64,000 nt of DNA, from contig CP064977.1 in NCBI GenBank assembly GCA_016699465.1, positions 409,743 through 473,742 on the forward strand, written 5' to 3'. Below are positions 37,108-63,050 of the stretch, piece by piece. The translations under genes were made by a program, and so were the position numbers. Position 1 is the first letter of the stretch, and each line of letters begins with the position of its first letter. A model generated the notes under the pieces. It saw only the letters and a program-made list of their open reading frames with translations, had not been told where the DNA came from and ran no database searches. Source of the stretch: Candidatus Campbellbacteria bacterium. GTDB taxonomy: Bacteria; Patescibacteriota; Minisyncoccia; Phycocordibacterales; EsbW-18.

Positions 37108-37261
37108 AGTGGTGGACCTGGAGGGATTCTAACCCCCAACCTCTTGGTTTAACAAGCGCTCTGACAAGGCTCATCCGTTAGGGATTTGAACCCCTGAAAC
37201 CAACGGCTGTGTTGATTTCCCCATCCGTGGGTTATAGGACAACCCATTTTGAGCTACAGGT
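37108..37261 (-). ncRNA. 154-nt tRNA-like element of unknown identity, downstream of the 23S 3' end
   Basis: Perfect 7-bp terminal helix GGACCUG...CAGGUCC followed by A-CCA. Internal anticodon-arm-like GGGTT-GTCCTAT-AACCC and two T-loop-like motifs. Does not fold as a canonical single tRNA or as a 5S rRNA. Confidence 0.25.
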
Positions 37262-37714
37262 CCAAAATATTTCCACTCTTCAATGTTTGTGTAGTATTCC
37301 CCGACGTATACATCGGAGCAAAAAGAAATCAGCGCGCTATGAATCGATTTTCAGATTACCTAACAGGAGATGTCGACGAATTAGTACATCTCGGCTCCAC
37401 ACATTACTGTGCGTCCACCTAATGCCTATCAACGTGATCATCTCTCACGGGTCTTAATGATTTCTAATCTTGAAGTTGGCTTCCCTCTTAGATGCTTTCA
37501 GAGGTTATCCATTCCCGACATAGCTACGCAGCGGTGCACCTGGCGGTACAGCTGCCACACCAGAGGTCAGTTCATTCCGGTCCTCTCGTACTAGGAACGA
37601 ATCTTCTCAAAAATCAGCGCCTGCAGCAGATAGGAGACCAACCTGTCTCACGCATGTTTCCAACGATTGCTCGTTGCATTGGACTATACCTTATACCTCG
37701 CTTTGCGAGTAAAC

Positions 37715-38375
37715 CCAAAGTTCAAATTTCAAAGCTCAAAATTTTGGATTTTGTGCTTTGTGCTTTGGATTTTCTTCTGCATCGCAGAAGGCATGTTGAC
37801 ATGTAGTCTCTACGGGTAATTGTGAATTCTATTGAGGGGCCGACGCAGGGTCAGCCCGGAACTTTCTGATCGAGTCAGATGATCCAGCTCGTCAGCATGT
37901 AGCTGGCGAAAAAGACCAAGACGCTGAGCGCGATCTTGATGTCGCGATCGACGTTCCTCATTTCTTCCTTGGTAGGGTGAACGAAGAAGTCTCGACGACT
38001 GCACGCAGGAAGAAATCCCGGCATGAAAGAACCTCCTTTCTGGACAGAAATGTCCTCAATAGAACTCACAATCATTCCCTCGGAATTACCCATAAAGGGT
38101 TTTCCCGATATAAGTCAACTTACTTCATACACATTACTATGTATGACCGCCGTGATATGATTGGTTCCTTTTAGTTTTCATCTTAAAAGACGAAAAGATT
38201 TTTTGGGCAACCGATTTCATTTTAAAATCGGAAGTTTTATTAGACAACATTACTTCGAAGGGATTCAGACTGTTTTGAAACCAATCACAAAATCCAAAGT
38301 TCAAAATCCAAAAAAATTCTAAGGTTTAAATCTTAAAAAACTTTTTTGAGCTTTGTGCTTTGAGCTTTTGATTTC
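37715..38375. repeat. IVS-like insertion in 23S, bounded by palindromic AT-rich repeat copies
   Basis: Copies of AAAGTTCAAAATCCAAAAAA...TTTTGAGCTTTGTGCTTTGAG at both ends (37715-37775, 38290-38375). A GC-rich interior has short ORFs with weak similarity (SRRDFFVH) to the four-helix-bundle protein. Confidence 0.55.
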
Positions 38376-39083: not shown

Positions 39084-40849
39084 CAGGGCTTATACAGTTC
39101 AGCATATACCTTGCGGCACACACCCCCCGTACTTGACCTTCTGGCATTGGTCAGGTGTCACCCCCTATACATCCTCTTGCGAGTTCGCAGGGAGCTGTGT
39201 TTTTGATAAACAGTCGCCAGGGAGACTTTCGCTGCGGCCCACGTACTGCTACGTGGGCAGACCTTATTGCTAACTTACGGTCGCTTTTTTGCCGAGTTCC
39301 TTGAGGACCTCTCACTCGTTCGCCTTACTCTACTCGAGCTGAACACCGGAGTCGGTTTGCGGTACGGTCTGTGTGTATTTATTCTTAGAAGATTTTCTTG
39401 GAAGCGCGCTCTATACCATTCCCCAACCCGAAAGTTGAGTTCTCGAAAACACTCGGGATAGTGCCTGCCGGATTTACCTAACAAGCGCCCTCGTGTCCCC
39501 GACACAAATCCAATAATGTGCGATATATACAGCACTCCGTCTCTCCATCGAAATACACCCAGGTCATGGAATATTAACCATGTGTCCATCATGTTCGGAT
39601 TTCTCCATCCACTTAGGCCCGACTAACCCTTCGCTGATTACCATCGCGAAGGAAACCTTGTTCTTTCGGCGTGCGGGTATTTCACCCGCATTGCGGTTAC
39701 TTGTACCAACATTCGCTCTTCGGAACGCTCCACCGTGGCTCACGCCTTCGGCTTCATCGCAGATCCAAATGCTCTCCTACCACTGCACATGCACGAATGC
39801 ACATACAATCCTCAGTTTCGGTACAATGCTTAGCCCCGATTGTCTGTGGCGCGAAGTCTCTAAATGAGTGAGCTGTTACGCTTTCTTTAAAAGATGGCTG
39901 CTTCTAAGCCAACTTCCTCAGTGTTTAAGAAACTTCACCTCCTCGACTGTGCACTTAGCATTGATTTTGGGACCTTAACTTGAGATCAAGGGCTGTTTCC
40001 CTTTTGACCAGTGGAGCTTAGCCCCCACGGTCTAACTGCCTAACACTTTACTCTTGGTATTCGGAGTTTGATTGGTCCAGCGAGATTTCTCCCTATCCAG
40101 ACCATCCAGTGCTCTACCCCCAAGAGGTACGTTAGACGCCAGCCCAAAAGCTGTTTCGGAGAGAACCAGCTATTACTAGGTTCGATAAGCTTTTCACTCC
40201 AACCCACAAGTCATCCGAAGATTTTGCACCATCAACCGGTTCGGGCCTCCCTCCATCTTTCGACAGAGTTCACCCTGCTCATGGGTAGCTCACCTAGCTT
40301 CGGGTCTTATGCAGACGACTAAAAGTAGAAGTTGGAGGCCAGACTCGAAGATACCGAAGTACCTTTTCGCCTGACTTCTAACTTCTACTATGTTCGCGCT
40401 ATTCACACTCGGTTTCCCTACAGATTCATCCGACAAAGGACTTATCTTACGCCGTGTGCATAAACTCGTTGGCTCATTCTTCAATAGGCACGCCATGACG
40501 GTCTTGCGACCGCGCTGACTCCTTGTAGGCATATGGTTTCAGATCTATTTCACTCCCCTCTCCGGGGTTCTTTTCACCTTTCCCTCGCGGTACTAGTTCA
40601 CTATCGGTCTCAATGTGTATGTAGCCTTGCCGGTTAGTTCCGGCGGATTCCCTCAGGCTATTCGTGTCCTGAGGTACTCAGGAACGGTAACTAGAAAGAT
40701 GTGTTCTTTTCGCATACAGGACTATTACCCTCTAGGGTCGCGCTTTCCAGCGCATTCTGCTAAGAACACATTTTGTAACTTTCTCCTTATCCGAAGACAG
40801 GCGTTACCGCCCTACAACCCCGCACGCATCACGCTGTACGCGATGCGTA

Positions 40850-40940
40850 AATCCAAAATCCAAAGTTCAAAATCCAAAAAAATTCTAAGATTTTAATTCT
40901 TAAAAACTTTTTTGAGCTTTGTACTTTAAGCTTTGTGCTT
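40850..40940. repeat. short hairpin-only copy of the same palindromic repeat in the 23S 5' domain
   Basis: aatccaaagttcaaaatccaaaaaaattctaag...ctttttttgagctttgtactttaagctttgtgctt. Confidence 0.5.
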
Positions 40941-42874: not shown

Positions 42875-43181
42875 TCGATGGACTCCTTTTTTAAAAAAAG
42901 AGAATACATTGGTGGGTGTTGCTGAAGCAACACCCACCAACGCCGTCACCTCCGTGTATGGTGTATACTACTCGATAGGATCACCTCCTTTGAAAGGATT
43001 TTATGATGTTCGAGAACAAGTCCTAAAGGGGACAATACAAAAATATATTATGCTAGTCAAGCATGAGGAAAGCCCCGAATCCAGAACGGATTCGGGGCCT
43101 TGAAACATAACGTACCTCTTTTTTTTGGTACTCACCTGTTTGGGAGTGCCCATTGCGTACCTACAACAGACACTCCCCACT

Positions 43182-43379
43182 TCAACTGCCGGTATCGATA
43201 GCCCAACGGAGGTTGACGTTGGTCAAATGTTTCTCGACGCTCGGACCGAGCGTCGAGACCGCCCTGTCACCGATGAACACGCTGGTGACGTCCTTCACCT
43301 GAGTCGCCGGATCCGCACGCGCGGCACCGGCGAAGGCGACGCAGCAAAGCATCACGATCAGAGCCAGCTTCCTCACGTT
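43182..43379 (-). CDS. small secreted GC-rich protein (hypothetical)
   Basis: AGGAGG RBS then GTG. Signal peptide KLALIVMLCCVAFAGAARA. Confidence 0.25.
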   Translation of the reverse strand, partial: NVRKLALIVMLCCVAFAGAARADPATQVKDVTSVFIGDRAVSTLGPSVEKHLTNVNLRWAIDTGS

Positions 43380-43854
43380 TTCCCGACCTCCTTTCTGTGT
43401 CGTTGTATACACATCGTGGACCAACGCTGGTCCACGAAGAGAAGTGTGTTATGGGTATTAGAAAGACCAACTAACACTACTATAATGATGGATGAAAAAA
43501 GTCAAATGCACCAAGTAGAGATACAATACTATTTCACCAACAACCCTTGTAACACTCTCTGGCAAGGAAAGGGCGGTTCCACTCCGTGGAACCGCCCTTG
43601 GTAGTGCGTCTCGTCCGCCGTGAAGTGCGGTGGCGTGTGTGTGGAACGAGCCAAGAGTTTCTTGTTCCTCATCTCTCTCCTTGGCGGACCCCTTGTCCGC
43701 TGAGTTGACCTTCGCACGATTACGAAAGGTCAAGAGACACATTAGAAAACTGGGGGCATGTACACCTACATTCGATACCACCAAAACAATCTTTTGTGTC
43801 AATAATAAAAAGAAAACCGTCACTAAGCGGTTTTCTTTTTAAACTCTAGGCAAT

Positions 43855-45999
43855 CTATTTACTTCGCTGTTCAATGATTGTTTTTGCAACGTTCTCTGGA
43901 ACCACTTCGTAGTGATCAAATTCCATCGTTGAGTTTCCTCGTCCTTCTGTCATCGAACGGAGCTGTGTGGTGTATCCAAACATTTCTGAAAGTGGCACAA
44001 ATGCACGCACCACCTTGAGTTGACCGCGGTCTTCCATTCCTTCAATTTGTCCGCGCTTTGATGAAAGATTTCCGGTGATGTCACCCATGAACTGTTCAGG
44101 AATAACCACTTCAATTTTCATAATCGGCTCAAGGAGCACTGGGCGAGCTTTTCGTGTTGCCTCTTGCAATGCTTGTGACGCTGCAATCTTGAACGCAATT
44201 TCAGATGAGTCCACGTCGTGGTACGAACCATCGTAGAGTTCAACAGACACATTCACCATGCGGTACCCCGCGAGAATACCACGATCCATCGCTTCACGAA
44301 GTCCTTTCTGCACAGCAGGAATAAATTCTTGTGGAATAACACCTCCCTTGATACTGTTGATAAATTCGAGTCCTTCGTCTCTCTTTGTGTTCTTTGGCAA
44401 ATCTTCATCTTTGATAGATGTATCCATCTGCTTCACCTTGATCTTCACGTGACCATACTGTCCCTTACCACCAGTTTGTTTGATGTACTTGTTTTCAACA
44501 TCTGCTTCACCGAGAATTGTTTCGCGGTATGCCACTTGTGGCTTACCAACGTTTGCATCAACTGAAAATTCACGACGCATACGTTCAACGAGCACTTCAA
44601 GGTGCAATTCACCCATGCCGGCGATAATGGTTTCGAGTGTTTCAGGATCTGACGTCACGCGGAATGTTGGGTCTTCGTCTGAAAGTCGCTTGAGTGCCAT
44701 ACCAAGTTTTTCTTGGTCTGCCTTTGTCTTTGGTTCAATACGAAGAGAAATAACTGGTTCAGGAATTTTAATTCGTTCAAGAATAATTGGGTGTGCCTCA
44801 TCACACAGTGTGTCAGATGTTTTTGTATCCTTGAGACCTACCGCTGCTGCAATTTCTCCCGCAAACACCTTCTTTACTTCTTCTCGATCGTTGGCGTGCA
44901 AACGCACAATACGTCCCACACGCTCTTTCGTTTCCTTTGTTGCATTGTACACATACGAGCCGGCTTCAAGAGAACCTGAGTACACACGGAAGAATGTAAG
45001 CTGACCAATAAATGGATCCGCCTGCACTTTGAATGCGAGCGCTGCAAATGGTTCCTCATCGGATGCGTGACGAATAATTTCTTCGTTGGTATTTGGGTCA
45101 ATTCCCTTTGCTGGAGGAATATCAAGTGGTGATGGAAGGTAATCAATAACTGCATCGAGCACGAGTTGCACACCTTTGTTCTTGAGCGCAGAACCTGTGA
45201 ACACAGGAATAATAAGGTTTGCGATAACCGCCTTGCGCAAAATTGCTTTAAGCTCCGCGTATGACGGCTCCTTCCCTTCCAAGTACATATTCATTGCCGC
45301 TTCGTCTTGCTCAACAATTTTTTCAATAAGTGTGTGGCGGTGCTTTTCAGCTTCTGCTTTCAAATGCTCAGGAACATCGTCTTGTCGAATGACACTACCC
45401 TTGTCTCCTTCAAAGTAAAATGCACGCATGGTGAGCAAATCAACAACACCTTCATGTTTGTCTTCTTCACCAATTGGAATTTGCATGCGAACTGCGTTCG
45501 GTGTGAGTCGATCGAGGATAGATGCGTATGAACGCTCAAATGATGCACCAGTACGATCGAGTTTGTTGATGAAACACATACGAGGCACTTTTCCTTCTTC
45601 TGCGTAGCGCCAGTTTGTTTCTGATTGTGGTTCAACTCCTGACACACCATCGAATACCACAACAGCACCGTCGAGCACACGGAGTGATCGTTTCACTTCA
45701 ATTGTAAAGTCGATGTGTCCTGGGGTATCAATGAGATTGAATCGGTGTTTGAGTTCTGTATTTTTTGCGTCGTATGAAGGTGTCCAAAAACACGTCGTTG
45801 CAGCAGCAGTAATCGTAATACCACGCTCACGTTCCTGCTCCATCCAGTCCATGACGGTGTCTCCTTCGTGCACTTCACCAATTTTGTGAGACACTCCTGT
45901 ATAAAAAAGCACGCGTTCGGAAACAGTTGTCTTTCCCGCGTCAATGTGTGCCACGATACCGAAGTTGCGTACTTTCTCTAGTGGATAGTCTCGTTCCAT
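43855..45999 (-). CDS. fusA: elongation factor G
   Basis: G-domain [21 protein letters not shown]. Full EF-G length. Confidence 0.9.
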
Positions 46000-46152
46000 A
46001 TAATTAGATACTTGATATTAGATACTGGAAATAAGGATAAAAAACGATATAAAAACGCCCCCACGGGCAAAACCACTATAGCATAAAAGTGTGCTTTAAC
46101 AACACACACAAAAAGGTCGCGCAGAGGTATCTGCGCGACCGAAAAAAGAACG

Positions 46153-46953
46153 TCACTCGTTCATCTGCGCTGCCTGTCGGCAGCGCAGAAGCGCCCGACC
46201 GGCGATTCTCTTGCAGAGAGCTCGCTTATCCTCGTCTGAAAGATCTCGTGGCGTCCGGTTCCCCTTCTTCGCCTCACTGAGAGACGCCAGGAGAACACGC
46301 TCCTTCGTGTTCCCGAAGAGCGTATCAAGAATGTCCTCCATGGCGGGGAGAAGAAGTTGTGCCTCCCGCTTCCGAGAAAGCGTGTCCTTGCGTACACCCG
46401 GAAGCAAGGGAGCCATGATGAGATCCGCCGCTCCCCACACCGACATTGCAAACAGGAGCGGAAGCGGATCCACATACGACTTCGGCCACATCTTCTCCGC
46501 CATGCCCTCGCGGACAGGCAATGAGATCTGGGAAGCCACTTCCCTCCAGATATGCCAGAGTCTGGACAAAGAACGCTGAATCCGCTCCGGATAGGGCGGA
46601 CGCTTCAGACACCCAGCACCAGTGGAAAGGAATGCGAGCACCTTGTAGTAGGTGGAGAACGCATCCTCTGGCGACACGTGGACAGCCACGGATACGTCTC
46701 CCAGAAAGCGCTCCGTCGCGAAAACCTGCATCGCATTGTCCGCAACGTCGCCTTCACCTTCCTCATGAGGAACATCTAGAAGAAATGTCACTTGCTCACA
46801 GAACAGGCGAACCTCATCTGGCGTCCTCATGCTCCCCGGGAGCACCTTACGAAGAGCGTACAGCAGCCCGATTGCCTCGGCTTCCGAAGCAGTGTTCTTC
46901 CACCGCTCCTGAAACTGCCCCCACGACGTGATTACCGCTAACTGTCTCGGCAT
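46153..46953 (-). CDS. hypothetical protein (GC-rich, inserted in the str operon)
   Basis: Strong RBS GAGAAAGGAG. About 60% GC. No recognisable domain. Confidence 0.45.
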   Translation of the reverse strand: MPRQLAVITSWGQFQERWKNTASEAEAIGLLYALRKVLPGSMRTPDEVRLFCEQVTFLLDVPHEEGEGDVADNAMQVFATERFLGDVSVAVHVSPEDAFSTYYKVLAFLSTGAGCLKRPPYPERIQRSLSRLWHIWREVASQISLPVREGMAEKMWPKSYVDPLPLLFAMSVWGAADLIMAPLLPGVRKDTLSRKREAQLLLPAMEDILDTLFGNTKERVLLASLSEAKKGNRTPRDLSDEDKRALCKRIAGRALLRCRQAAQMNE

Positions 46954-47098
46954 GGATCACTCCTTTCTCGTTGGTCGCCCGCTCAATTAGGGCAACAGAT
47001 GATCCGTTGCCAATTCTCCGCAAAAGTAAACGGAAGTCAAGAAAACAGAAAGGCCGTGCGGGTACGCCCGCACGGCCAGAACTAAAAGAACCTATTCC

Positions 47099-47616
47099 TT
47101 ACGGAACGTACCCACCAATGACACCCTTCCAACGAAATTCGTTGATTTCGCCCCCATTTCCCTCCCTGCTCTGAAAGATGTCCACGGTCACACGATCACC
47201 CGCACGGGTAAGCGCACACACATCAACCGCTCCCTCGTTCATAGGCAATGAGTTTCTGATGGCCGTAAACTCCAGAGGGCTTCCCGACAGCATCAAAGGT
47301 CTACTGAATTGAATCTTCCCTTTTTCCGGACGTACGATAAGCTTGCATCCAGTAATCTTCATAACAACGACCGACGTTCCATCTGCACCTGCTGCGCCTG
47401 CAATTGCCCCAAGTGTCGGCATGCCAACAAACGAACCAATGATGGCACCACCAATCGCATCACCACCGGCGCCAGATGGTGTTACTTTTTCTTCGGCAAG
47501 CACCCGCACCTCCTGAACAATTGCGGTAACCGAAGCGTATTGTGTGACCTCCCCGCAATCGGAGTACTGGCCAACAACGGTCATGAGAACAAGCAGTGAA
47601 CCGCGCACATTCATGT
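47099..47616 (-). CDS. SlyB-like glycine-zipper outer-membrane lipoprotein family protein
   Basis: Signal peptide. Glycine zipper GAGGDAIGGAIIGSFVGMPTLGAIAGAAGADG. RBS AGGGGGAAA. GC-rich. Confidence 0.5.
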
Positions 47617-47773
47617 GTGTTTCCCCCTGTGAGTTGTTTGTGTTGGGTTGGGTGAACGATTTTTTCTTAATGCACACTACTCTTTTGAAAACAATCAGTC
47701 AACGTACCCAAGGAAAAAACACGCCTTGGGACGTGTCTTTTGCTTGTTTTTGACGGCTTAATTAAAATTCCAC

Positions 47774-48268
47774 TTATTTCTTCTTTGGTCTCGCAAGTGC
47801 GAAGTGAGCAAATGCTTTGTTGGCCTCCGCCATCTTGTGCACGTTGTCACGCTTTGCCATAGCACCTCCCTCTCCTTTACTTGCGGCAAGCAATTCTCCT
47901 GCGAGTCGTGTTGCAAAATCTGCACCCTTCTTTGCGCGAGCACCTTCAAGGAGCCATCGGAGTGCGAGTGCGAGCTGTCGTTCTGGACGAACTGGATGTG
48001 GCACCTGATAGTTGGCACCTCCCACACGTCGTGAGCGAACTTCCATTGTTGGTGCAACACTCTGAATGGTCTGTTCCAAAAATGCAGCAGGATCTTCGAC
48101 GTTGTTCTTTGTCTTTAAAATATCGAGGGCATCGTACACCAATTTTTGTGCAACGCTCTTTTTACCGTGCTTAATCACATGCGCAATAAGCTTACTTACC
48201 GTAACTGAGTGGTAGACTCGGTCTGGAAGCATTGGGTGTTTTTCTCGTTCTTTAAGTTTACGACGCAT
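47774..48268 (-). CDS. rpsG: ribosomal protein S7
   Basis: S7 family motifs (KHGKKSVAQKLVYDAL...). Confidence 0.85.
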   Translation of the reverse strand: MRRKLKEREKHPMLPDRVYHSVTVSKLIAHVIKHGKKSVAQKLVYDALDILKTKNNVEDPAAFLEQTIQSVAPTMEVRSRRVGGANYQVPHPVRPERQLALALRWLLEGARAKKGADFATRLAGELLAASKGEGGAMAKRDNVHKMAEANKAFAHFALARPKKK

Positions 48269-48277
48269 AATGATGAG

Positions 48278-48368
48278 TTAAAATTCAAAGTTCAAAATTT
48301 AAAATCTAAAAAATGTTTGATGTTTATAATTTAAAGTTCTTTGAGCTTTGTGCTTTAGATTTTGTGCT
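48278..48368. repeat. palindromic AT-rich repeat (IVS-stem family) in the rpsL-rpsG intergenic region
   Basis: aaattcaaagttcaaaatttaaaatctaaaaaa...ctttgagctttgtgctttagattttgtgctt. Confidence 0.5.
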
Positions 48369-48784
48369 TACTTCGCTGCCTTTGGACGCTTCGCCCCGTA
48401 ATGACTTCGTCCCTTTCTTCGTTTGTCTACTCCTTCAGCATCAAATGTTCCACGAACGATTGTGTAACGAACTCCAATGTCTTTTACACGACCGCCGCGC
48501 AAAAGTACCACTGAGTGTTCCTGCAACTTGTGTCCCATTCCTGGAATGTACGCCGTAACTTCTTGACCGTTCGTCAATCGTACACGAGCAATTTTTCGGA
48601 TAGCTGAGTTTGGCTTCTTTGGAGTTGTTGTCTTCACCTGCGTACACACACCACGCTTAAATGGAGATGGGTATCGTGAAGGTCGGTTTTCGAGTGTGTT
48701 AAAACCACGACCAAGGGCGGTCGTCTTTGTTTTGCGAGCTGACTTCTTTCGATTTTTTCGAATAAGCTGGTTGATTGTCGACAT
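48368..48784 (-). CDS. rpsL: ribosomal protein S12
   Basis: Highly conserved S12 sequence (PKKPNSA(I)RK, GGRVKDLPGVRY-like). Confidence 0.9.
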
Positions 48785-49079
48785 GATTGATTTTTTTAGC
48801 GAACGAAGTGAGTTTTAAAAATCGTCACCCAGCACTTAGTGCTGAGAACCGTTTTTCTTCATCCGCTATGGGCTTCTACCCGACTTACCAACACGCGTAG
48901 GTATCTGATAACTAAGTGCTGGGTCTAAGAGTTGTACGTCGCCCTGCGACAACAACTCTAAGAAAAATCCGCAAACGCGGCTTTCAAGAGAATACTATAG
49001 AAAAGCCTCTCGTGCAAGTTCCCAATTTGTCCCTGCGTAGCAGGGTCGAATCGCAATCCCCATCGAGCCCTTACCTGAC

Positions 49080-49727
49080 TTAAAAGGAAATACCAGTAAT
49101 GAGGGTAAAAAGGACGCTTACAAGAGGGGCAATAAACTTCCACCCAACAAGAACAACAATAAAGACAAAGATAAAACCATATCTATCCATACTTTGCAGA
49201 CGTGCGGCATACCGTAAAGGAAGCGCCGCCATCAAGACCTTCGAGCCATCGAGTGGTGGAACAGGAATAAGGTTAAATACCATAAGGGCAATATTTGTCA
49301 CTACAATAAGAACGGCAATAGAAAGAACCCCTTCAGGAAGCACGCCTCCTGCGAAGCGAATAAGGAAACCGAAAATAAGTGCCAAAAGAAGATTGGTACC
49401 GGGACCAGCAAGCGCAACGTACGCCTCGCTCCACTTCCCCGGGCGTAAATTGTATGGATTGTACGGCACTGGTTTTGCCCATCCAAAAATAAATCCCCCT
49501 GACAACCATGTAATGGCCGGAACAATAATGGAACCTATCATGTCCAAGTGAGAAATTGGGTTGAGTGTCAGACGTCCAGCAAGTCGAGCCGTTGGATCAC
49601 CCAGCGCGTTTGCAGCATAGCCGTGCGCAACCTCGTGTAAGACGACGGAAAGCATAACAATGGCAATGACAATGGCGGTTGTTGCGATATCGGGCATGAT
49701 GAGGAAAGCACAAAGCTCAAAGTACAA
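49080..49727 (-). CDS. site-2 protease family (M50) zinc metalloprotease
   Basis: HEVAHG and NLIPVPPLDG motifs. Multi-TM. Confidence 0.7.
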   Translation of the reverse strand: MYFELCAFLIMPDIATTAIVIAIVMLSVVLHEVAHGYAANALGDPTARLAGRLTLNPISHLDMIGSIIVPAITWLSGGFIFGWAKPVPYNPYNLRPGKWSEAYVALAGPGTNLLLALIFGFLIRFAGGVLPEGVLSIAVLIVVTNIALMVFNLIPVPPLDGSKVLMAALPLRYAARLQSMDRYGFIFVFIVVLVGWKFIAPLVSVLFTLITGISF

Positions 49728-49738
49728 AATCCAAAAAA

Positions 49739-50128
49739 TTATTTAGAAGATTTTATTTTGGCTTCAGTGTTCCACATGATAGTACTAAATATTCGGGCAA
49801 GTTCCAATGACTCACCGTACAAACGTTTACGAACACGTTCGATTTCTTCGGTGTGTACCGAAATAAGACTAAGCCAATAAGCACTTTCTCGCGCTTCTTT
49901 ACGGCAAATTCGTATGCGATGCACAAAATCCCTGCGACTTAAACACTCATTTGCCTCAATATAATTAGCCCCCACTGATCCCGACGACCTAATGAGTTGT
50001 TTACAATCCTCAATAGTGGCCTGGGTTTTCTGAAGAATGGACGTAAAATGTCGGACATTCATTGCAAATGTCCTGCTCCGTTCTTCTAAATCAAATATTT
50101 TCCTTTCTTGTTGATCTTCATTTGTCAT
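49739..50128 (-). CDS. four-helix-bundle protein (23S rRNA intervening-sequence protein / Avd-like family)
   Basis: QLIRSSGSVGANYIEA motif typical of the family. Flanked by inverted copies of the IVS-stem repeat (49704-49745 and 50128-50165). Confidence 0.65.
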   Translation of the reverse strand: MTNEDQQERKIFDLEERSRTFAMNVRHFTSILQKTQATIEDCKQLIRSSGSVGANYIEANECLSRRDFVHRIRICRKEARESAYWLSLISVHTEEIERVRKRLYGESLELARIFSTIMWNTEAKIKSSK

Positions 50129-50211
50129 TTTTTGAGCTTTGTGCTTTTGATTTTGAGCTTTGACTAGCATATTTTACTGTGCTAGTATCAAGTTTCGATA
50201 AAGTTATATAT

Positions 50212-50466
50212 ATGACCAAAGAATGCGTTATAACAGGAGCAACAACACTCACCGCTGGTCGCTACAGTAATAGAACGCGCGCGACGCAGTTTAACCCTGG
50301 CGTAAAACGAGGTAAGAAGCGCCGAAAGGCCAACTTACAGAAGCGCAAGCTTTTTATTCCTGAACTCGGAAAAAGCGTTCATGTTGTTGTCTCAAACCGC
50401 GGCATGAAAACAATTCGTAAGAATGGCGCATATTCAGCCCTCAAGAAAGTCGGCGCTCTCAAATAG
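50212..50466 (+). CDS. rpmB: ribosomal protein L28
   Basis: C(V)ITG...R..RATQFNP...VVVSNRGMKTIRKNG pattern. Terminator hairpin 50477-50510. Confidence 0.65.
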   Translation: MTKECVITGATTLTAGRYSNRTRATQFNPGVKRGKKRRKANLQKRKLFIPELGKSVHVVVSNRGMKTIRKNGAYSALKKVGALK

Positions 50467-50476
50467 ATTCAATACT

Positions 50477-50510
50477 AAAAACCCTCGGCACAATGCCGAG
50501 GGTTTTTAGT
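50477..50510 (+). terminator. rho-independent terminator after rpmB
   Basis: aaaaaccctcggcacaatgccgagggttttt. Confidence 0.6.
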
Positions 50511-50608
50511 TACTACATATCCCCACCCTCCAGCAGAGCACGCTATTTTCTACTTCTTTAGTGTTTGATTTTTCTCCTCCCACATTCCAGATACCACATA
50601 CTATGCAG

Positions 50609-53308
50609 CTATCTTCCTTTCATCAATTCAGCCAAAAGTTGTTTCAGGAGTTCAATAAGTTGTGTTTGGAGTTGAATGAGAAACACATTAGTATTAGTGG
50701 CTATTCGTGCTCGCCCAGATGCACCACCTCCAGTAATCGCTTCCTCAACAGCCACTTCGTTCGGAGTTATATCAACCACAAAAATATCTTCGACTTCATT
50801 CGTATCGCCAGCAACAAGATCTGTTGCAAACGACGTAAATGAAATGACATTTCCATCATCAGAAATAAAAGGATTCGCCGAATACTCTGAAACTTCATTC
50901 CCTGCATCATTTACATTAATAAGCGTTGTTGTGTTTTGTGTACGATCACGAAGGAACACATCCGTCCGCTCACTATCAGTGTCATCTGGAGTGAGCACCC
51001 CCCTTGAATCAAACACCACGTACCGTCCATCTGTTGATATTGAAAAACATGAAGCCACCTCTTCCTCACAAGGTTGAGCCAACGATTCTTCTCCTGCAGT
51101 AGAAACGCTCACTCGTTCAATCGTATCAAGTGTTCTATCATACACAAAAAGATCTCCTTGAGCATTTGTATCACCCGCAACAAGATTTGTTGCGTTGGAT
51201 ACAAAGACGGCATACCGACCCGTTGATGAAATAATCCCTTCGTATGAATCCTCATCTGCTTCTAACCCCGCCTCATCTACACTCACTCGTTCAATAGTAT
51301 TGAGTGTGCGATCGTAGACAAATACATCCATGGAACTGTTTGTATCCCCTTCAATGAGATTTGTTGCACTCGAAGAAAACAGCACGTATCGACCATCGTC
51401 AGATATATCAGATGCTCCAGCATTCGAATCCCCTTCGACACCACCACTTGTTTTATCAATAAGCTCAAGAGTCTCAGCATCTCTATCGTACAAAAAAACA
51501 TGATTGTATCCCCGGGTTGTTTCCGCCGTCAAAAGCCCACTTGTTTGAAATAAAACATACTGTCCGTTCCCAGAAATGGTGCCCCCTACTACATGTTCAC
51601 TATTTTCTGCACCTTCGCTACTCAAACTCACTCGTTCGATAACATCTGCGTTACGATCGTACACAAACATATCATCCTTACTATTTGTATCACCGACAAC
51701 AAAGTTACTTGCCCCAGAATAAAAAGCAACATATCGACCATCTGAAGAAATGGATGGATTTTTTGAAGCTCCATTGCCTTCGGCACCCTCATCATCCACA
51801 CTCACACGCTCAATAGTGTCGAGCGTGCGGTCATACACAAACACGTCTGTTACGCCATTTGTATCGTCGGCAACAAGATTTGTTGCATCTGACTCAAACG
51901 CAACATATCGGCCATCTGAAGAAACGACAGACATTATCGAACGAGCGTCCCCTTCACTCCCCGAAGGCGTGTCCGACGCACGACTGATAAGCTCAATTGT
52001 TTCAAGCGTACGATCGTACACAAATCTATCAGCAAATCCATTAGTATCCCCAGTGACAAGATTTGTTGCTGAAGAATTAAACGCAACATATCGCCCATCA
52101 TCTGAAATAGTTGGATACTCAGACGCACCAGTACCCTCAACTGACGCGGCACTCACACTAACACGTTCCGTGACTCCAGATAATTGATCGTGCACAAAGA
52201 TATCCGCAACAGCATTTGTATCACCCGCCACCAAATTACTTGCTTCAGAATCAAACACCACATACCGTCCATCATCTGAAATAGAGGCATTACTTGAATG
52301 ACTATCCCCCTCCACACTCTCACTATCAACACTCATCCGCTCAACCGTATCAAGCGTGCGGTCATACACGAACACATCAGTCGCTCCATTTGTATCACCA
52401 GCGACAAGATTTGTTGCCTCCGAGTCAAACGCAACATATCGCCCATCACCAGAAATAGCAGGGTCTCGTGATGAGCCATCACTTTCCAGACCATCACTAT
52501 CCACACTCACACGCTCGATGATATCGAAGGTTCTGTCATAGACAAAAATATCATCCGCAACACCTGTATCCCCACCAACAAGATTTGTTGCCCCTGAATC
52601 AAATGCGACATAGCGACCGTCTGAAGAAATGGATGGTTCGTTTGATGCAAAATTTCCTTCAACACCCTCACTATCCACACTCACGCGCTCAATAGTATCG
52701 AGCGTGCGGTCATACACAAACACGTCTGTTACGCCATTTGTATCGTCGGCAACAAGATTTGCCCCACCAGAATTGAATGCAACGTATTGCCCGTCATCTG
52801 AAATAGAAGCATCCCGAGAAGAACCATCACTTTCATTTCCAAGAGCATCAATACTTACCCGCTCAATCGTATCAAGTGCTCTGTCATACACAAAAATATC
52901 TTGTACCAAATTTGTATCACCAGCAACGAGATTTGTTGCATCCGATTGAAATGCCACATATCTACCATCTGAAGAAATAAACGGCTTGTCAGATGCGTCA
53001 TCACCTTGAGTACCGTCAGTAGCAACACTCACTCGTTCAATAGCATTGAGCATGCGGTCATACACGAACACATCAGTCGCTCCATTTGTATCGCCAGCGA
53101 CAAGATTTGTTGCATCTGACTCAAATGCAACATATCGGCCATCAGATGAAATCGAGAAATGCGCTCTGTTTACAGAAGATGCATTACCTTCCGCCCCCAA
53201 AACGGTGAATGTTGATGTCGGCACACTCACATGCTCAACGGTTCGTGCGTATACACACAGCGGTACTACAAACGATATAAGTACTGTTGTAATTATTTTT
53301 TGTATCAT
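50609..53308 (-). CDS. large secreted protein with about 16 tandem PD40/TolB-like beta-propeller repeats
   Basis: Signal peptide. Repeating unit about 55 aa: ISSDGRYVAFDS.ATNLV.GDTNG..DVFVYDRTLDTIERVSV. The repeats are also near-identical at the nucleotide level. Confidence 0.55.
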   Translation of the reverse strand: MIQKIITTVLISFVVPLCVYARTVEHVSVPTSTFTVLGAEGNASSVNRAHFSISSDGRYVAFESDATNLVAGDTNGATDVFVYDRMLNAIERVSVATDGTQGDDASDKPFISSDGRYVAFQSDATNLVAGDTNLVQDIFVYDRALDTIERVSIDALGNESDGSSRDASISDDGQYVAFNSGGANLVADDTNGVTDVFVYDRTLDTIERVSVDSEGVEGNFASNEPSISSDGRYVAFDSGATNLVGGDTGVADDIFVYDRTFDIIERVSVDSDGLESDGSSRDPAISGDGRYVAFDSEATNLVAGDTNGATDVFVYDRTLDTVERMSVDSESVEGDSHSSNASISDDGRYVVFDSEASNLVAGDTNAVADIFVHDQLSGVTERVSVSAASVEGTGASEYPTISDDGRYVAFNSSATNLVTGDTNGFADRFVYDRTLETIELISRASDTPSGSEGDARSIMSVVSSDGRYVAFESDATNLVADDTNGVTDVFVYDRTLDTIERVSVDDEGAEGNGASKNPSISSDGRYVAFYSGASNFVVGDTNSKDDMFVYDRNADVIERVSLSSEGAENSEHVVGGTISGNGQYVLFQTSGLLTAETTRGYNHVFLYDRDAETLELIDKTSGGVEGDSNAGASDISDDGRYVLFSSSATNLIEGDTNSSMDVFVYDRTLNTIERVSVDEAGLEADEDSYEGIISSTGRYAVFVSNATNLVAGDTNAQGDLFVYDRTLDTIERVSVSTAGEESLAQPCEEEVASCFSISTDGRYVVFDSRGVLTPDDTDSERTDVFLRDRTQNTTTLINVNDAGNEVSEYSANPFISDDGNVISFTSFATDLVAGDTNEVEDIFVVDITPNEVAVEEAITGGGASGRARIATNTNVFLIQLQTQLIELLKQLLAELMKGR

Positions 53309-53503
53309 ATGAATGTTTTTGCCATGCCACCTATTTTGAAGCGACAGTAAATAAATAAAAAACATAACACCTACATGTATCATACCTATCGCTTCAGTAT
53401 ATCAGGTTTTTATTTTTTCATGGTTTTACTCACCCACATACAAAAACACTCGGCACAGAGCTGGGTGTTTTTATTTACTACACACCTCACCCCTAACAGG
53501 CCG

Positions 53504-54781: not shown

Positions 54782-55617
54782 TCAGAGCTGGGCAAACTTC
54801 TCCGTCAGATCGTTGACGAACTGGTGGAACTCGGGCTTCTTCTGGATGTCGGCTTCCCACGCAATCCCCATGTCCACCAAGTTGAACGTCTCCTTGATGT
54901 AGGCACCGGGAACGATGTCGCCGGTCGTTGGATTGCGATCACGACCCATCAGCCAAATCGTGTCCGCGATCTTCGCTGCTGCCGTGATGTCGTGCGACAC
55001 GACGATGGTGGTGTTGAGCTCATTCATGGAGGAAACCTCCATGATGAGATCACAGACACGGTTCTTCACGAGAGGGTCGAGTCCCGAGAACGGCTCGTCC
55101 ATCAGAAGAAAGTGTTCTGAACACATCAACTGTTGAGCGATGGCAACACGCTGGCGCTGGCCGCCAGAAAGCTGCTTGGGGTACTTCCCCGAGTGCTCGG
55201 TGAGACCGAACTTCTCGAGCAGACCTTTGGCTTTCACCAGGGACTGCTGGTCGTTAAGGCCAGCTTGTTTCCCCGCCACAACAAGGTTGCCGAGCACTGT
55301 CCGGTGCATCAGAACACGGTAGTCCTGAGACACCACACCAACTTGTCCCGCCGAAACGGGAATGCCGGTTCCGTTGAGAACGACCTGTCCTACAGTTGGA
55401 TGGAGAAGGCCCGCCATGATGCGGAAGAGTGTCGTCTTGCCGACGCCCGAGGGGCCGAGAAGTGCGACAACCTGCCCGCGAACGAAACCTTCCTGCTTGA
55501 TGTTGTAGACAGCCGTCGTCACGTCGCGGAGAATCGGAACATCCATCCCTTCTGGGGTGAAGCCGACACCGTCGATGTGAAGAAGGATCTCGCCGAACGT
55601 GTAGGTGGGAATCATGG
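54782..55617 (-). CDS. ABC transporter ATP-binding protein (GC-rich block)
   Basis: Walker A GPSGVGKTT, signature LSGGQRQRVAIA, Walker B LLMDEPFSGLD. RBS GGAGAAGAGG. Start immediately follows the permease stop. Confidence 0.8.
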
Positions 55618-56408
55618 CTACCTCTTCTCCAGTCCCAATTGGGACCACGGGCAGACCGCGCGTTTGAACATCACCTGCACCTGATCGAACAACAATCCGA
55701 TACAGAGGATGGAAAACTGGATTGCGTAGATCTCAGGCAACTTGAGGAACTTGCTCTGTGTAAGCAGCAATGCCCCGACGCCACCCTCCGATCGCACCAG
55801 TCCTTCCACTACCGTCAACATCATCCACGCGATTGCCGCGTTCTGCCGTATGGCCTCGAGCACCAAGTCGGCCTTGCCGAGCACGATGACTTCGAAGACT
55901 GTTCGCCACGGTCCCATGCGGAGTGTCCGCGCATGGTCGAGCTCGTCTTTCGTCACTGAATCGACGATTGACAGAATGCTCGGAACCATGAAAACAGACA
56001 AACCAAACACGAGAACCGTGAGCTTGAGCAGGTGTCCACCCCCCGTGAGAAGGGTGAAGATGAAGTTGAGTCCGACGAGCCCGAGGAAGCGCATCTTGGA
56101 GACGAGCTGTCCAGCAGGCTTGAAGAATTGCAGGACACGAAGGTAGCCGAGCCCGAGTGAGAATGTGGTTGCGATGAGAATCGCTTCCACACAGGTCACG
56201 AAGCTGGCCTTCATCGCCTGACCCAAACCGTAGCTGATCCATAGGTGCCCAAAGGCACCGATGACCTCCATCGGCTTGGGAATGACCTTCATGGGCCAGG
56301 CGATCCAGATTCCGAGAGCCACCAGTACCTGGAACGCTACCATGATGGCAGCGTCCTTCCTGGGCACTGTGGCGTGCGGCGTGAACAGCCGCGCGAGTGC
56401 GGTTTTCA
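55618..56408 (-). CDS. ABC transporter permease (NitT/TauT-like)
   Basis: 6-TM permease with an EAA-like loop. RBS AAAGGAGAG. Confidence 0.7.
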
Positions 56409-56659
56409 TCTGTCGTACTCTCCTTTCTGATTGCTGTGTGCTGAGCGCGGAATGCGCTAATTCTGTTTCTGTAATGCAACGAGTTATCAAGGAACACGCG
56501 AGAACGCGTGCAGAATCTGTCTGAGATTAGGCACCTTCTCAAAGCTCTCGCACAATACAAGAGCTCTGAAAGATGCCCGTGCACCGGAGGGTTTGAACCC
56601 ATACGATGCACGAGCGACGGTATTACAATGGAACGGTGTTACTTACCCGATGACGGGGC

Positions 56660-58483
56660 TCAGTTCGTCGAACCGAGCACAATCTCCACACGACGGTTCT
56701 GTGCCTTGCCTTCGGACGTCGTGTTGGACGCCTTGGGCTCGGTCTCGCCGAACGCACGGATGCGAATTCGGCCGTTCGGGAAGTTGGCAGGAGCTTCGTG
56801 CTCCAACCACTCCTTGACGGCGAATGCACGCTGCTCGGAGAGCAGCATGTTACTCTCGTCGTCTCCATCGGAGTCGGTGTGTCCGTGAACCTCCACGGCT
56901 AGCGCTTCGGCGATGACGAGATCCTTCAGCAACTGCTGAAGCTTCGCGAGTGCATCTGGCGTGAACTGGGCCGAGCCACTCACGAAGTTGATCTGCCATG
57001 CTTTGCGCGACACCTCGTCACGAATGCGGGTGGATGACGTGAATGTCGGCGCATCGGCCGTCGTTGTGACACCCACCCGATCCCGAAGCTCTTCGATGAA
57101 CCGGGTGTTGATCACCTGATCCACAGGAGTGTACATCGGGAAATCCTTCGGGTACTGCTGCGAAAGCAGCGAACCGAAGTTCTCATACACCAGCTTGGCG
57201 GTCTTCGCCGAACCAGGGGTCAGGCCGAACAAGCGCAGGTTGTCGGCGAGGTTGTTGGCGTAACTTCCGCCAAGTTCGACCTCGATTCCCTTCTTGTCGC
57301 GCTCGCGCACGACGGTGTAGTACTTCTTCCAGTAGGCCGCCGTCTCCTCGCGGTAGACGTCGGCGCTCACCTTTGCAGCGAAGTCCAGAGCGGCGGGACT
57401 GAACTTGATGTTGTCTCCACCTTCCAGCGCCGCACGCAGGAAGTTCACGACGAGCTCAGGGTGAGCCGTGTCGAACTTCTTGATGCCGATGATTGCGTTG
57501 GGCATCTGGCTGCTGTACTCCTTGGTAGAAGCCAGCGAAACCAAGCCACCCTTCTTCTGTGCAACCATCACATCGCCCGGCGTCCACGTTGCAACACCGT
57601 TGACGCAGACGTGCTTAGCGTCACCCGTACGCCGACCGTTCTTCACGACCGGACGGTCTTCGCAGTAGCCGGTGATGTACTTCTCCGCGGCATCCATGTA
57701 ACTGGCGGCCCGGACCCAGTTGACTGCGTCCGGATCGTACGTCGTTTCGTCGCGATTGTTGATGACGCCGTTGTCCCCCTGGAACTTCAAGCAGACGTTC
57801 CAGTCACCGTCAGTGATGACACCAGCGAAAAGCGCGCCACGCATGGCTTGCGGATTGTGCTTCCATTCCGGCAGACCCATGCACTTGTCCTCGCCGCGGC
57901 TGTAGCCGAGCGAGCCCACATATTCCACCGTGTACTCCGAGCCGAGCCGGCCGAGCGTATTGTTGACCGTCGTAACGAACGCGGGAGCACCGTCCCACAT
58001 GATGGACACATGAGTTGCGCCACCGCTACATTCCGAGCCGCCCGACGAAGACATCTCCGTCGCACAGGTGACGAGGTCGGCTTGCATCTGGCTCACGTCG
58101 TCCTGGCGGTACCAGTAGACGTTGCTTCCGTACTTCGCCATGAGCGAACCGTCCATGGGGACGTTCCCGCCCATCGCGTACCAAAGACCCATCTGCGAAC
58201 TCCACGCCCATCCGGCGATCCGCATCTGCGGGCCGGACATACGGGCGGGGGTGTTGCTCGGCGCCGACGAGGGGACGAATCCCTGCGTCGCCGACGAACT
58301 GGCGGTGCTCAGCGTCGGAAGATCGACCTGCTTGGGCAGGATCGACTTCATGATATTGCTGCCGGGGATGAGCCCGAAGTAATCGAGCCCCAGGTAGCCG
58401 ACGAAGAACGCGGCGATGATGATGCCGAGCTTGGGAAGCGGGCCCAGACGGGCCCAGAAACTGCGCTGATCGTTTCCGTTCAT
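56660..58483 (-). CDS. membrane-anchored periplasmic substrate-binding-like domain fused to a C-terminal OmpA-like peptidoglycan-binding domain
   Basis: N-terminal TM segment. Central SBP-like region. C-terminal OmpA_C motif (...AFGETEP...NRRVEIVL). Confidence 0.5.
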   Translation of the reverse strand: MNGNDQRSFWARLGPLPKLGIIIAAFFVGYLGLDYFGLIPGSNIMKSILPKQVDLPTLSTASSSATQGFVPSSAPSNTPARMSGPQMRIAGWAWSSQMGLWYAMGGNVPMDGSLMAKYGSNVYWYRQDDVSQMQADLVTCATEMSSSGGSECSGGATHVSIMWDGAPAFVTTVNNTLGRLGSEYTVEYVGSLGYSRGEDKCMGLPEWKHNPQAMRGALFAGVITDGDWNVCLKFQGDNGVINNRDETTYDPDAVNWVRAASYMDAAEKYITGYCEDRPVVKNGRRTGDAKHVCVNGVATWTPGDVMVAQKKGGLVSLASTKEYSSQMPNAIIGIKKFDTAHPELVVNFLRAALEGGDNIKFSPAALDFAAKVSADVYREETAAYWKKYYTVVRERDKKGIEVELGGSYANNLADNLRLFGLTPGSAKTAKLVYENFGSLLSQQYPKDFPMYTPVDQVINTRFIEELRDRVGVTTTADAPTFTSSTRIRDEVSRKAWQINFVSGSAQFTPDALAKLQQLLKDLVIAEALAVEVHGHTDSDGDDESNMLLSEQRAFAVKEWLEHEAPANFPNGRIRIRAFGETEPKASNTTSEGKAQNRRVEIVLGSTN

Positions 58484-58552
58484 TGTATCCTCTTTTCTGG
58501 TCTCTGTTTCTGTTGGTTCACTGCCACCCGATCAACGCGATCAAGGTGCTGT

Positions 58553-59650
58553 TCAGCGCGCCACGAGAAGTGGCTCGCGTTGCTGCGGGGTCGTGATGAC
58601 CTGCGCGAGACCGGAGACACCACCTTCGGTGAGAAGGCGCTGTTCGGACGCCGCGCGATCCAGCAAGTTCGTTGCCCTCGCGTCGAACTCGTCCATCTTG
58701 GAGAGTTCGGCGAACATCTTGTCCTCGGCCATGTCGCCCTCCAGCTCGTACGACCCCGTGAATTCCGGAGTCATCCGCATGAAGACCTCGACTTCGGCCT
58801 CGGACTGGGCGATCTGCTCACCCATGTACTCCATGGAGAGAGCGAAGAACTCCGCCTGGCTGTTCCCACCACCGAGCGTGCTCGACACGATGTTCACGGC
58901 CTCTCGGGTTTCCTCCGAGGCCTTGAACTCGGCCGTCATGATCTCGACGGTGAGTTGGATCATCCTGATGTAGAACTTGTACGCCTGGACGAACTTCTCC
59001 AGGACGACCTGCCGCTTCTTGAGAAGCTCGAGTTGGAACTCGAACTTCTTGAGCGACTTGGACCGCATCTCGTACTCGAAGGAAGCCTCGCGAAACTGCG
59101 CTGACTTCTCTTCACTGCTCCAACGGCCCGTCTTATCGTCGTAGTGACGAGACTTGAGGGCCTCCGCTGTTCTGCGAGCGGTCTCGATCTGCTCCTTGGT
59201 CACTGCGATCGCTCGCTCACGCTCTTTGACGATTGCGACGAGACGGCTGAGTGCACTGACCAAATTGTTGAGCTGGGTACCGAGGTACTCGTGCGCGTAC
59301 AACTTGGCGTGTTCCGCCGGGTTCATACGAAGAATCCAGAGGCTCATCTTCTTGGCAAGACGCCGGTAGATGTGCCATCCGAGAGTCCTTGTCCCCGGTT
59401 GGATTGCGACCCACACCGCACCACCGAGAAGCGCCGCCTTGATAGCGATCGCCGTCATGTAGCTGAACGATGTGCTGATGAGGCCGAGCGTCGAGACGAT
59501 GCTCGGCAGGACCAGAGGGCCGATGCCGAAGGTGACCGCCGCGACGATTGCCGCGAGGGTGAGTGCACCGACGACCTTCTCCTTCTTGGCCACGAAGTCC
59601 TTCATGGACGACGAGCCCGAGGAGAGTTGTGGAACTGAGGGCAGGTTCAT
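58553..59650 (-). CDS. membrane-associated coiled-coil protein, possibly TelA-like
   Basis: Two N-terminal hydrophobic segments then a long alpha-helical/coiled-coil region. RBS AAAGGA. Confidence 0.35.
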   Translation of the reverse strand: MNLPSVPQLSSGSSSMKDFVAKKEKVVGALTLAAIVAAVTFGIGPLVLPSIVSTLGLISTSFSYMTAIAIKAALLGGAVWVAIQPGTRTLGWHIYRRLAKKMSLWILRMNPAEHAKLYAHEYLGTQLNNLVSALSRLVAIVKERERAIAVTKEQIETARRTAEALKSRHYDDKTGRWSSEEKSAQFREASFEYEMRSKSLKKFEFQLELLKKRQVVLEKFVQAYKFYIRMIQLTVEIMTAEFKASEETREAVNIVSSTLGGGNSQAEFFALSMEYMGEQIAQSEAEVEVFMRMTPEFTGSYELEGDMAEDKMFAELSKMDEFDARATNLLDRAASEQRLLTEGGVSGLAQVITTPQQREPLLVAR

Positions 59651-59685
59651 GAATATCCTTTCTTGCAGTGCTTTCGTTGACCTAG

Positions 59686-60431: not shown

Positions 60432-61059
60432 CTCCTTTCTGATTCTGTTGCTGTTTCTGTATGCTGGTGAACGGTGACTTCTGACGTGCTTCTTCAGAGT
60501 CGATCGGTTGGTCGCTTCGGCCGCGCATTGAATGCACGCCAACCACGACGTTTTCCTCGAACATCCGAGAGAATCACGGCACTTCCGCTTTCTGGAAACG
60601 ACTTCTCCTTCCACACCGGTGGCGTGAGAGAAAAAGTAACGCTTCCTTGAAGTTCGGGAGTGTCTTCCTCTGCCTGTGCAACTGCGTACGGGCCATGTGG
60701 TCCTTCGAGGTACACCCGTTGGACGATACACACCCATCGCTTCTTCTGCGGTGGCGGAATAGTAATCACCTCCTTTCCATTGTAATGACAAAGAACAGTG
60801 AATAAGAAAAAGCTCGCAACACGATGTTACGGGCCTTTTCACTGGTCGCAAGTATAGCAAATTTAAAACATTCGTCAAGTAGACACACATGCTATTTTGT
60901 GTTGATTTAAAATACGAAAAAGCCCCGAACAAATCGGCCTGTGGGGCTCGTTCGTTTGGGGCCTGTGTATCTCGCGTAGGGTGATGCTTCAGCCGACTCG
61001 CTTCGCGTTGCGAAAGCGAATCTCGTCGATGCGTGCCGCCAACTTGACGGGTGTAGTAA

Positions 61060-63029: not shown

Positions 63030-63050
63030 GTTCTCTCCTTGTGTACGGTT

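Follow-up and report, generated by a model that had tools for sequence, protein, structure and literature searches.

In Escherichia coli and Salmonella, rpsL, rpsG, fusA and tufA form a single operon, the classical str operon. Free-standing mobile open reading frames (ORFs) between conserved genes are known from the seg and mob homing endonuclease genes of T4-like phages, and mRNA leaders that occlude the ribosome-binding site (RBS) from the fold-back inhibition of the IS10 and IS50 transposases and from 5´-terminal stabilising stem-loops. Here we describe a 64-kb stretch of the Candidatus Campbellbacteria contig CP064977.1 (positions 409,743 to 473,742; hereafter the window) in which two genes, ORF171 and ORF266, stand between rpsG and fusA, and we compare it with contigs and loci from other genomes or assemblies (L-numbers). 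Brandis, Cao and Hughes (2019; PMC6735719) describe insertions into the translation gene cluster as gathering between its transcription units, at terminator/promoter junctions, and our insert likewise lies between an rpsG terminator and a fusA promoter, both predicted. What differs from E. coli and Salmonella is that in this clade of the candidate phyla radiation (CPR) the boundary appears inside the str operon itself, with tuf not adjacent. Gios et al. (2025; PMC12455944) state that most of the transfers they detected occurred among Patescibacteria. The islets they describe resemble our locus in involving small CPR genomes and compositionally atypical, patchily distributed genes, and here a unit of 94% identity is common to two genera; that unit differs in being a single 0.9-kb gene with its own predicted promoter, leader and terminator and with no integrase, transposase, tRNA or prophage context. 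Accessory genes at a translation-cluster boundary in Patescibacteria are a known phenomenon, and the mobile family and its candidate leader are modestly new.

The genes rpsL, rpsG, ORF171, ORF266 and fusA follow one another in tandem on the minus strand, with 1.77 kb between rpsG and fusA, so the str genes are not contiguous here (Table 1). An independently assembled Logan contig (L001) is 100% identical to the window over 45821-51848, covering both junctions, which rules out an assembly chimera. Given dN/dS (the ratio of nonsynonymous to synonymous substitution rates) of 0.20 for ORF171, compared with the sister-species locus L004, and of 0.36 and 0.27 for ORF266, compared with L002 and L003, respectively, both ORFs are genuine genes under purifying selection. 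ORF171 starts at an ATG at 47614 rather than at 47616, and the sister-species ortholog begins at the equivalent ATG; the GTG further upstream, at 47677, merely opens the longest possible ORF, and this extension overlaps the predicted ORF171 promoter. The initial annotation had described both genes as about 60% GC with strong RBSs. This fits ORF266, with a GC content of 0.581, a GC content at third codon positions (GC3) of 0.66 and AAGGAG 7 nt ahead of its ATG, but not ORF171, with a GC content of 0.525, a GC3 of 0.50 and the weaker RBS GGGGGA; the corresponding values for rpsL, rpsG and fusA are 0.46-0.485 and about 0.39-0.40. Neither ORF matched a Pfam domain, no integrase, transposase or tRNA was found within 43-49 kb, and no prophage context was found at the rpsG-fusA site.

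Table 1. Features of the rpsG-fusA region, in window coordinates. Promoter-like sites and terminators are predicted.
Feature	Position	Strand	Basis or sequence
rpsL (ribosomal protein S12)	48368-48784	-	Pfam Ribosom_S12_S23, E=1.7e-32
rpsG (ribosomal protein S7)	47774-48268	-	Pfam Ribosomal_S7, E=4.6e-53
Terminator-like hairpin and U-run after rpsG	47714-47737	-	GACACG-TCCCAAGG-CGTGT then TTTTTT
ORF171 promoter-like site	47674-47702	-	TTGACT-N17-TAGTGT, read from sequence
ORF171 (171 aa)	47099-47614	-	dN/dS; sister-species ortholog
ORF171 intrinsic terminator	47042-47077	-	11-bp stem with 10 GC pairs, then T-run
901-bp unit (promoter and leader with ORF266, ending shortly after its stop codon)	46147-47047	-	blastn
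ORF266 promoter-like site	47013-47040	-	TTGACT-N16-GAGAAT
Structured 5´ leader of the ORF266 family	46949-47006	-	RNAalifold, covariance model
ORF266 (266 aa)	46153-46953	-	Member of unannotated family FAM266; dN/dS
ORF266 intrinsic terminator	46105-46140	-	11-bp stem then TTTTT
fusA promoter-like site	46075-46102	-	TTGTTA-N16-TATAGT with TG extension
Conserved fusA leader hairpin	46048-46069	-	GCCCGNNGGGGC then TTTTTATA; invariant columns in alignment of window, L005, L007 and L008
fusA (elongation factor G, EF-G)	43855-45999	-	Five EF-G Pfam domains

We examined the signals that delimit each gene, promoters and terminators being throughout consensus or fold predictions from sequence. The hairpin after rpsG has a 12-bp stem in the minimum free energy (MFE) fold, made up of a modest 5-6 bp GC core with A-U extensions; clear GC-rich terminators stand at the equivalent place after rpsG in the related loci L005, L007 and L008, whether or not there is an insert. 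In the same three loci, TGCTATAGT and the -35 element of the fusA promoter are conserved, as is the fusA leader hairpin. Because the fusA promoter and leader and the rpsG terminators are conserved in relatives regardless of the insert, the junction is predicted to have been a terminator/promoter gap before the insertion, with the str operon split at this point. Within the insert, the -10 element of the ORF171 promoter-like site is weak, its equivalent in L004 being TTGACG-N17-TATTTT, and the ORF266 promoter-like site is kept with the gene in a copy in a foreign context (L086/L002) and in L003. The ORF266 terminator hairpin is found in L004/L003 at the 3´ side of both the ORF171 and the ORF266 homologs. 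Since a separate promoter-like site and a strong terminator accompany each of the inserted genes, the two look insulated and are probably separate transcription units, and wiring into the str operon by design appears unlikely. When the terminator hairpins and the TTTTGCGGAGAAT promoter motif were searched for as repeated elements in the window, they were unique or at chance level. A first impression of terminator shuffling was rejected, since in alignment the ORF171 terminator of the window proved orthologous to its L004 counterpart, with compensatory changes between them.

To place the insertion, we scanned species-representative genomes for S7, which gave 80 loci, 77 of which also hold EF-G. 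The rpsG-fusA gap is below 320 nt in 68 of the 77, among them the close relatives L006 (47 nt), L007 (132 nt) and L008 (210 nt), in agreement with the initial annotation that two extra genes separate rpsG from fusA in the window. Its view of the insertion as unusual fared less well: at least 9 of the 77 relatives have an enlarged junction, of 388-3308 nt, and most of these contain unrelated ORFs. L005, the closest species representative, carries a membrane orphan, L037 and L043 carry TerC, L036 has a gene for a YtxH-like protein and L057 one for a 23S_rRNA_IVP protein, while L010 and L060 hold several orphans. No homolog of ORF171 or of FAM266, the family of ORF266, was found in the str loci of the 80 relatives. 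As part of an explanation that we consider likely as a whole, the rpsG-fusA gap would be a tolerated landing site filled with different genes in different relatives.

The synteny comparison that the initial annotation had proposed as a check gave a divided answer, with the insert shared with one sister species and absent from L005-L008. The sister locus L004, whose S7 and S12 are 98% and 100% identical to those of the window, reads rpsL-rpsG-ORF171, and L003, from the same sample, carries an ORF266 homolog. L003 starts with the terminator on which L004 ends; the two are therefore probably contiguous, and the sister would share both inserted genes. Synonymous divergence (dS) between the window and the sister is 0.74 for ORF171, 0.75 for the neighbouring M50 peptidase gene and about 1.0 for ORF266. 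As judged from the equal dS of ORF171 and the peptidase gene, the insertion is older than the split between the window and the sister species and, from its distribution, younger than the split from L005-L008.

As for tuf, the initial annotation was right that none follows fusA: the tuf motif GHVDHGKT does not occur anywhere in the 64-kb window, nor was it found after fusA in L006 or L008, while more distant relatives have tuf 150-3500 nt downstream of fusA. As far as gene order indicates, the whole translation gene cluster is porous in this group. The roughly 850 nt downstream of fusA (43000-43850), with a GC content of about 0.53 and no convincing ORF (a 159-aa ORF lacks a Pfam match), may be what remains of an insert, or else a non-coding element, at the place where tuf classically lies.

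ORF266 is also present in another genus. The 901-bp unit is 94.3-94.6% identical in L002, L085-L087 and L089, and blastn against L002 and L086 showed the flanks to be unrelated. The foreign copy lies between ftsA and ftsZ on the opposite strand, beside an unrelated GC-rich 235-aa orphan, in a host with a GC content of about 0.53 whose FtsA is 60% identical to that of the 811-kb genome of the window (P0034). Given 94% identity across the unit and a dS of 0.09 to the foreign copy (versus about 1.0 to the sister-species copy), set against 60% identity of FtsA, the comparison implies a recent inter-genus transfer of ORF266, most simply out of a lineage like that of the window. L088 and L090, from the same foreign lineage, have no ORF266, revealing a presence/absence polymorphism. 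Their empty junctions differ, L090 being joined at the 9-bp repeat TTTGCGGAG and L088 at a GCGG microhomology, and both retain the -35 region, so that these alleles fit secondary deletions better than ancestral empty sites. The 9-bp flanking repeat occurs only in L086, not in the window, and fits deletion by slippage equally well.

Several hallmarks of horizontal transfer were found for ORF266, namely a near-identical copy in a distant genome and another context, an atypical GC3 (0.66 versus 0.39) and a patchy distribution, but an associated integrase, transposase or tRNA was not. The unit has no recombinase gene, terminal inverted repeats or flanking target duplication in the window; an insertion sequence or transposon was rejected on the lack of a transposase domain, of terminal inverted repeats and of a target duplication there. 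The initial description of the pair as foreign-looking holds for ORF266, which is horizontally mobile, and is plausible for ORF171, but high GC does not serve as a sign of recent arrival (see below). The 235-aa orphan (L086 6062-6769, GC3 0.77) is a second GC-rich gene between ftsA and ftsZ of the foreign lineage, and no homolog of it was found in the window. L088 (3990-4048) departs from L086 straight after the hairpin upstream of this orphan, which suggests a second, hairpin-bounded presence/absence polymorphism.

A word-indexed search returned just two homologs per ORF. When 1.84 billion representatives were searched exhaustively with a profile, 26 clusters related to ORF266 were recovered, of 245-303 aa, defining the family FAM266. 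Its members share the motifs I-x-T-W-E-E-F-x-x-R-W, T-E-x-E-A-I-G-L-L-Y-A-G, P-P-Y-P-R-F-I and W-G-x-A. As W, G, F and P are the sole invariant residues, with none of catalytic type and no nuclease motif, ORF266 most likely has no enzymatic role and is a helical protein of the cytoplasm. FAM266 members had no match among Pfam, NCBIfam, PADLOC or PDB sequences, ORF266 had none among PHROGs, and scans of IMG/VR and JGI metagenome contigs found no member. An AlphaFold2 (AF2) model of ORF266, made from a shallow alignment before the 26-sequence alignment was available, is all helices with a predicted local distance difference test (pLDDT) score of 51. So far, FAM266 is found only in Patescibacteria-type contexts.

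FAM266 members recur beside conserved genes. In L092-L094, a member lies between rplE and rpsN, in the spc ribosomal operon, beside a PemK-like gene, and in L097 between glyA and folD; several others have ordinary neighbourhoods. Each member has a strong terminator hairpin at its 3´ side. Most sampled members are GC-richer than their host flanks (for L095, 0.54 versus 0.33-0.43). Because the insert predates the species split (dS about 0.75-1.0) with its GC content kept, and most sampled members exceed their hosts in GC, high GC is, on this comparison, a persistent FAM266 trait and not simply a mark of recent arrival. In L092 (5230-6704), and also in L093 and L094, the PemK-like toxin gene has no obvious upstream antitoxin and is followed by the FAM266 member, each of the two with its own promoter-like site and terminator. 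No type II toxin-antitoxin domain was matched in Pfam or PADLOC for the gene pair of the window, the PemK-like neighbour being confined to L092-L093 in this comparison.

A two-helix leader was detected upstream of every sampled FAM266 member. In the outer helix, the 5´ end is base-paired with the stretch running from the Shine-Dalgarno (SD) sequence up to the start codon; enclosed within it are a GC-rich hairpin of 7 bp and, after this hairpin, an A-rich linker that carries GGAG. RNAalifold gave 14 pairs, 8 with compensatory changes, and a covariance model built from eight sequences recovered the held-out L098 and L100 leaders in place, with E about 1e-4 to 7e-4 in 288 kb. In the leader alignment, 93.4% of cells are paired and 9 of the 14 pairs covary, a level reached by none of 500 shuffles, and slid controls gave 29-52%. 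MFE z-scores lie between -0.7 and -4.7, and eight of the ten are -2.1 or lower. In five of the leaders for which a promoter-like site was readable by eye (including those of the window, L092, L095 and L096), the 5´ arm starts near the predicted transcript start. The leader is single-copy in the window, no further copy was found there or in the 30 loci searched, and Rfam gave no match at the gathering score and only chance-level matches at E<=10. Like the known RBS-occluding leaders, that of FAM266 pairs a 5´ segment with the SD/start region, but its inner 7-bp GC hairpin and its A-rich linker are features of FAM266 alone, and it corresponds to no Rfam family. The pairing suggests that the leader keeps translation low or conditional, insulates the gene from outside transcription, or both.

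For ORF171, only two sequences were found in 5.8e9 proteins, ORF171 itself and the sister ortholog at 76%. ORF171 is Gly/Ala/Val-rich, with an N-terminal hydrophobic signal or anchor segment and a glycine zipper (G56xxxG60xxxG64, G69xxxG73) in a hydrophobic window at 53-76 (Kyte-Doolittle score 1.6). The initial annotation had called it a SlyB-like outer-membrane lipoprotein. It resembles the SlyB/PCP lipoproteins (Gly-zipper_Omp, Rick_17kDa_Anti) in that a hydrophobic GxxxGxxxG segment follows the hydrophobic N-terminal region, but the lipoprotein assignment is not supported: against Pfam and NCBIfam at E<=1 there was no glycine-zipper or SlyB profile, the only matches being NfeD, BBS7 and GroES fragments far below cut-offs, and a regular-expression search for a lipobox ([LVI][ASTVI][GAS]C) in ORF171 found none, the conserved Cys lying in VGQYSD-C (VGQFTD-C in the ortholog). 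A 90-aa C-terminal part drawn as beta strands in a low-confidence AF2 model (shallow alignment, pLDDT 32, unusable) would not be a SlyB feature either. Nor is an outer membrane known from CPR bacteria. No match was found in PHROG, PADLOC or PDB, and no relative in the IMG/VR and JGI metagenome scans. ORF171 is best described, from its sequence features, as a lineage-restricted, exported or membrane-anchored glycine-zipper protein, for which a foreign origin is plausible. Two identical copies of the 10-bp sequence TGGGTACGTT (minus strand), in direct orientation, flank the ORF171 unit at 47701-47710 and 47105-47114, one over the -35 region and the other over the last codons; the repeat is probably a coincidence, about 1.6 such repeats being expected by chance in the 1.85-kb region.

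The explanation that we find likely overall is that two accessory genes, each predicted to form its own transcription unit, were inserted into a pre-existing rpsG-fusA terminator/promoter gap in the ancestor that this Campbellbacteria species shares with one sister species. ORF171 would be restricted to that lineage, and ORF266 would travel as a compact unit of sigma-70-like promoter, SD/start-occluding leader helix, ORF and strong terminator, by a recombinase-less inter-genus move that probably involved recombination at short repeats or hairpins after DNA uptake. Several points weigh against this account: the promoters and terminators are predictions, the -10 element of ORF171 is weak, and some read-through from rpsL and rpsG is possible; the join of L004 and L003 is deduced from a common terminator repeat at contig ends; both AF2 models failed (pLDDT 51 and 32); ORF266 has been resident for long and yet kept a high GC content, for which a plain recent arrival of foreign DNA would not account; and no recombinase gene, terminal inverted repeats or target duplication in the window points to a mechanism of mobility. 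The initial annotation had instead proposed that envelope genes were recruited into the str operon, with read-through from the rpsL promoter tying them to ribosome and EF-G production. The tandem arrangement of the five genes on one strand agrees with this, as does the modest GC core of the rpsG hairpin, past which partial read-through is possible. We nevertheless regard such coupling as very unlikely, given the predicted rpsG terminator, the separate promoter-like site and 11-bp GC-rich terminator of each inserted gene, a fusA promoter and leader conserved in relatives without the insert, the presence of the ORF266 unit, oppositely oriented, between ftsA and ftsZ in another genus, and an ORF266 leader that occludes the RBS; nor is ORF171 demonstrably an envelope lipoprotein. 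The locus thus reveals no new link between envelope biogenesis and translation. That both genes are old and vertically inherited, their GC excess reflecting amino-acid composition or selection, would agree with the presence of the insert at the same site in the sister species, with an ORF171 dS equal to that of a flanking housekeeping gene, with the GC excess in most FAM266 hosts and with the Gly/Ala/Val-rich composition of ORF171. We consider it highly improbable, as the insert is absent from L005-L008, whose junctions are intact or differently filled, ORF266 is 94% identical in a genus with an FtsA of only 60% identity, and GC3 is raised along with overall GC.

Features of FAM266 also raise the question of whether the unit is a selfish or addiction-type module, either an antitoxin or immunity partner of the variable upstream gene (ORF171, the 235-aa ORF or PemK) or a homing-like gene at essential-gene junctions. 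FAM266 recurs between the conserved pairs rpsG/fusA, ftsA/ftsZ, rplE/rpsN and glyA/folD, with a different gene immediately upstream in three contexts, once a PemK-like toxin gene; the presence of the unit varies among strains, and its translation is predicted to be tightly occluded. Yet the family lacks invariant catalytic-type residues and matches in Pfam, PADLOC and PHROG; in L090, ORF266 alone was lost or gained with the upstream flank seemingly intact; other members have no such partner gene; no conserved target sequence was seen at the sites; and most neighbours in tiny CPR genomes are essential anyway. On balance we think a module of this kind unlikely. Comparison with seg and mob points the same way on homing: ORF266 is similarly a single gene with its own predicted promoter, a presence/absence polymorphism and a place between highly conserved genes, but it lacks a nuclease motif and catalytic invariants, and its near-identical copies at two unrelated sites are unlike site-specific homing. 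We would extend the insertion account only tentatively, and with small expectation, to the proposal that FAM266 is an unrecognised compact, recombinase-less CPR mobile gene of promoter, riboregulated leader, ORF and terminator that settles preferentially in terminator/promoter gaps between essential conserved genes (rpsG/fusA, ftsA/ftsZ, rplE/rpsN), its leader being a novel regulatory RNA that might serve the FAM266 protein as an operator or insulate the gene against read-through from strong operons nearby.

Under the insertion account, rpsG/fusA is a predicted break in the textbook str operon of these ultra-small bacteria, the boundary serving as a recurrent landing pad for accessory genes, which bears on annotation, on the use of ribosomal-gene synteny as a marker and on gene acquisition by streamlined genomes. 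The analysis also defines an unannotated protein family with a clear recent inter-genus transfer and provides a candidate cis-regulatory RNA with covariation support and no counterpart in Rfam.

We also noted other features of the window. Further GC-rich islands occur at 10633-11478, 28200-28919, 29091-29867, 54782-60564 and 62457-63506, with GC contents of 0.53-0.66 and GC3 up to 0.85 in a backbone of about 0.44 GC; they contain mostly orphans lacking a Pfam match, plus an ABC ATPase and an OmpA-domain protein. The ORF171/ORF266 insert is one instance of this genome-wide mosaic. The 99-nt rpsL-rpsG spacer (48269-48367) is an AT-rich imperfect palindrome, copies of which, at about 75% identity, are found at the 3´ edge of the 23S rRNA match and within its 5´ part (38288-38370 and 40849-40938), with a half-copy (50128-50158) beside a 23S_rRNA_IVP-family gene (49739-50170). 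This palindrome may belong to a family of intervening-sequence or RNase III-type processing hairpins reused in an mRNA spacer. At 37113-37263, adjoining tRNA-Leu, tRNA-Cys and 5S downstream of the 23S gene, an Rfam tRNA match spans 151 nt that ARAGORN did not call and may be an intron-containing tRNA. The 924-aa protein encoded at 50609-53383, a region of strongly negative GC skew, consists of many repeats of roughly 58 aa (DGRYVAF-S-ATNLV-GDTN-DVFVYDR). Finally, a 527-aa ORF at 8061-9679 looks by eye like a serine recombinase (N-terminus YGRVSTSRQ), and its end overlaps tRNA-Ser (9590-9679), which hints at an integrated element upstream.

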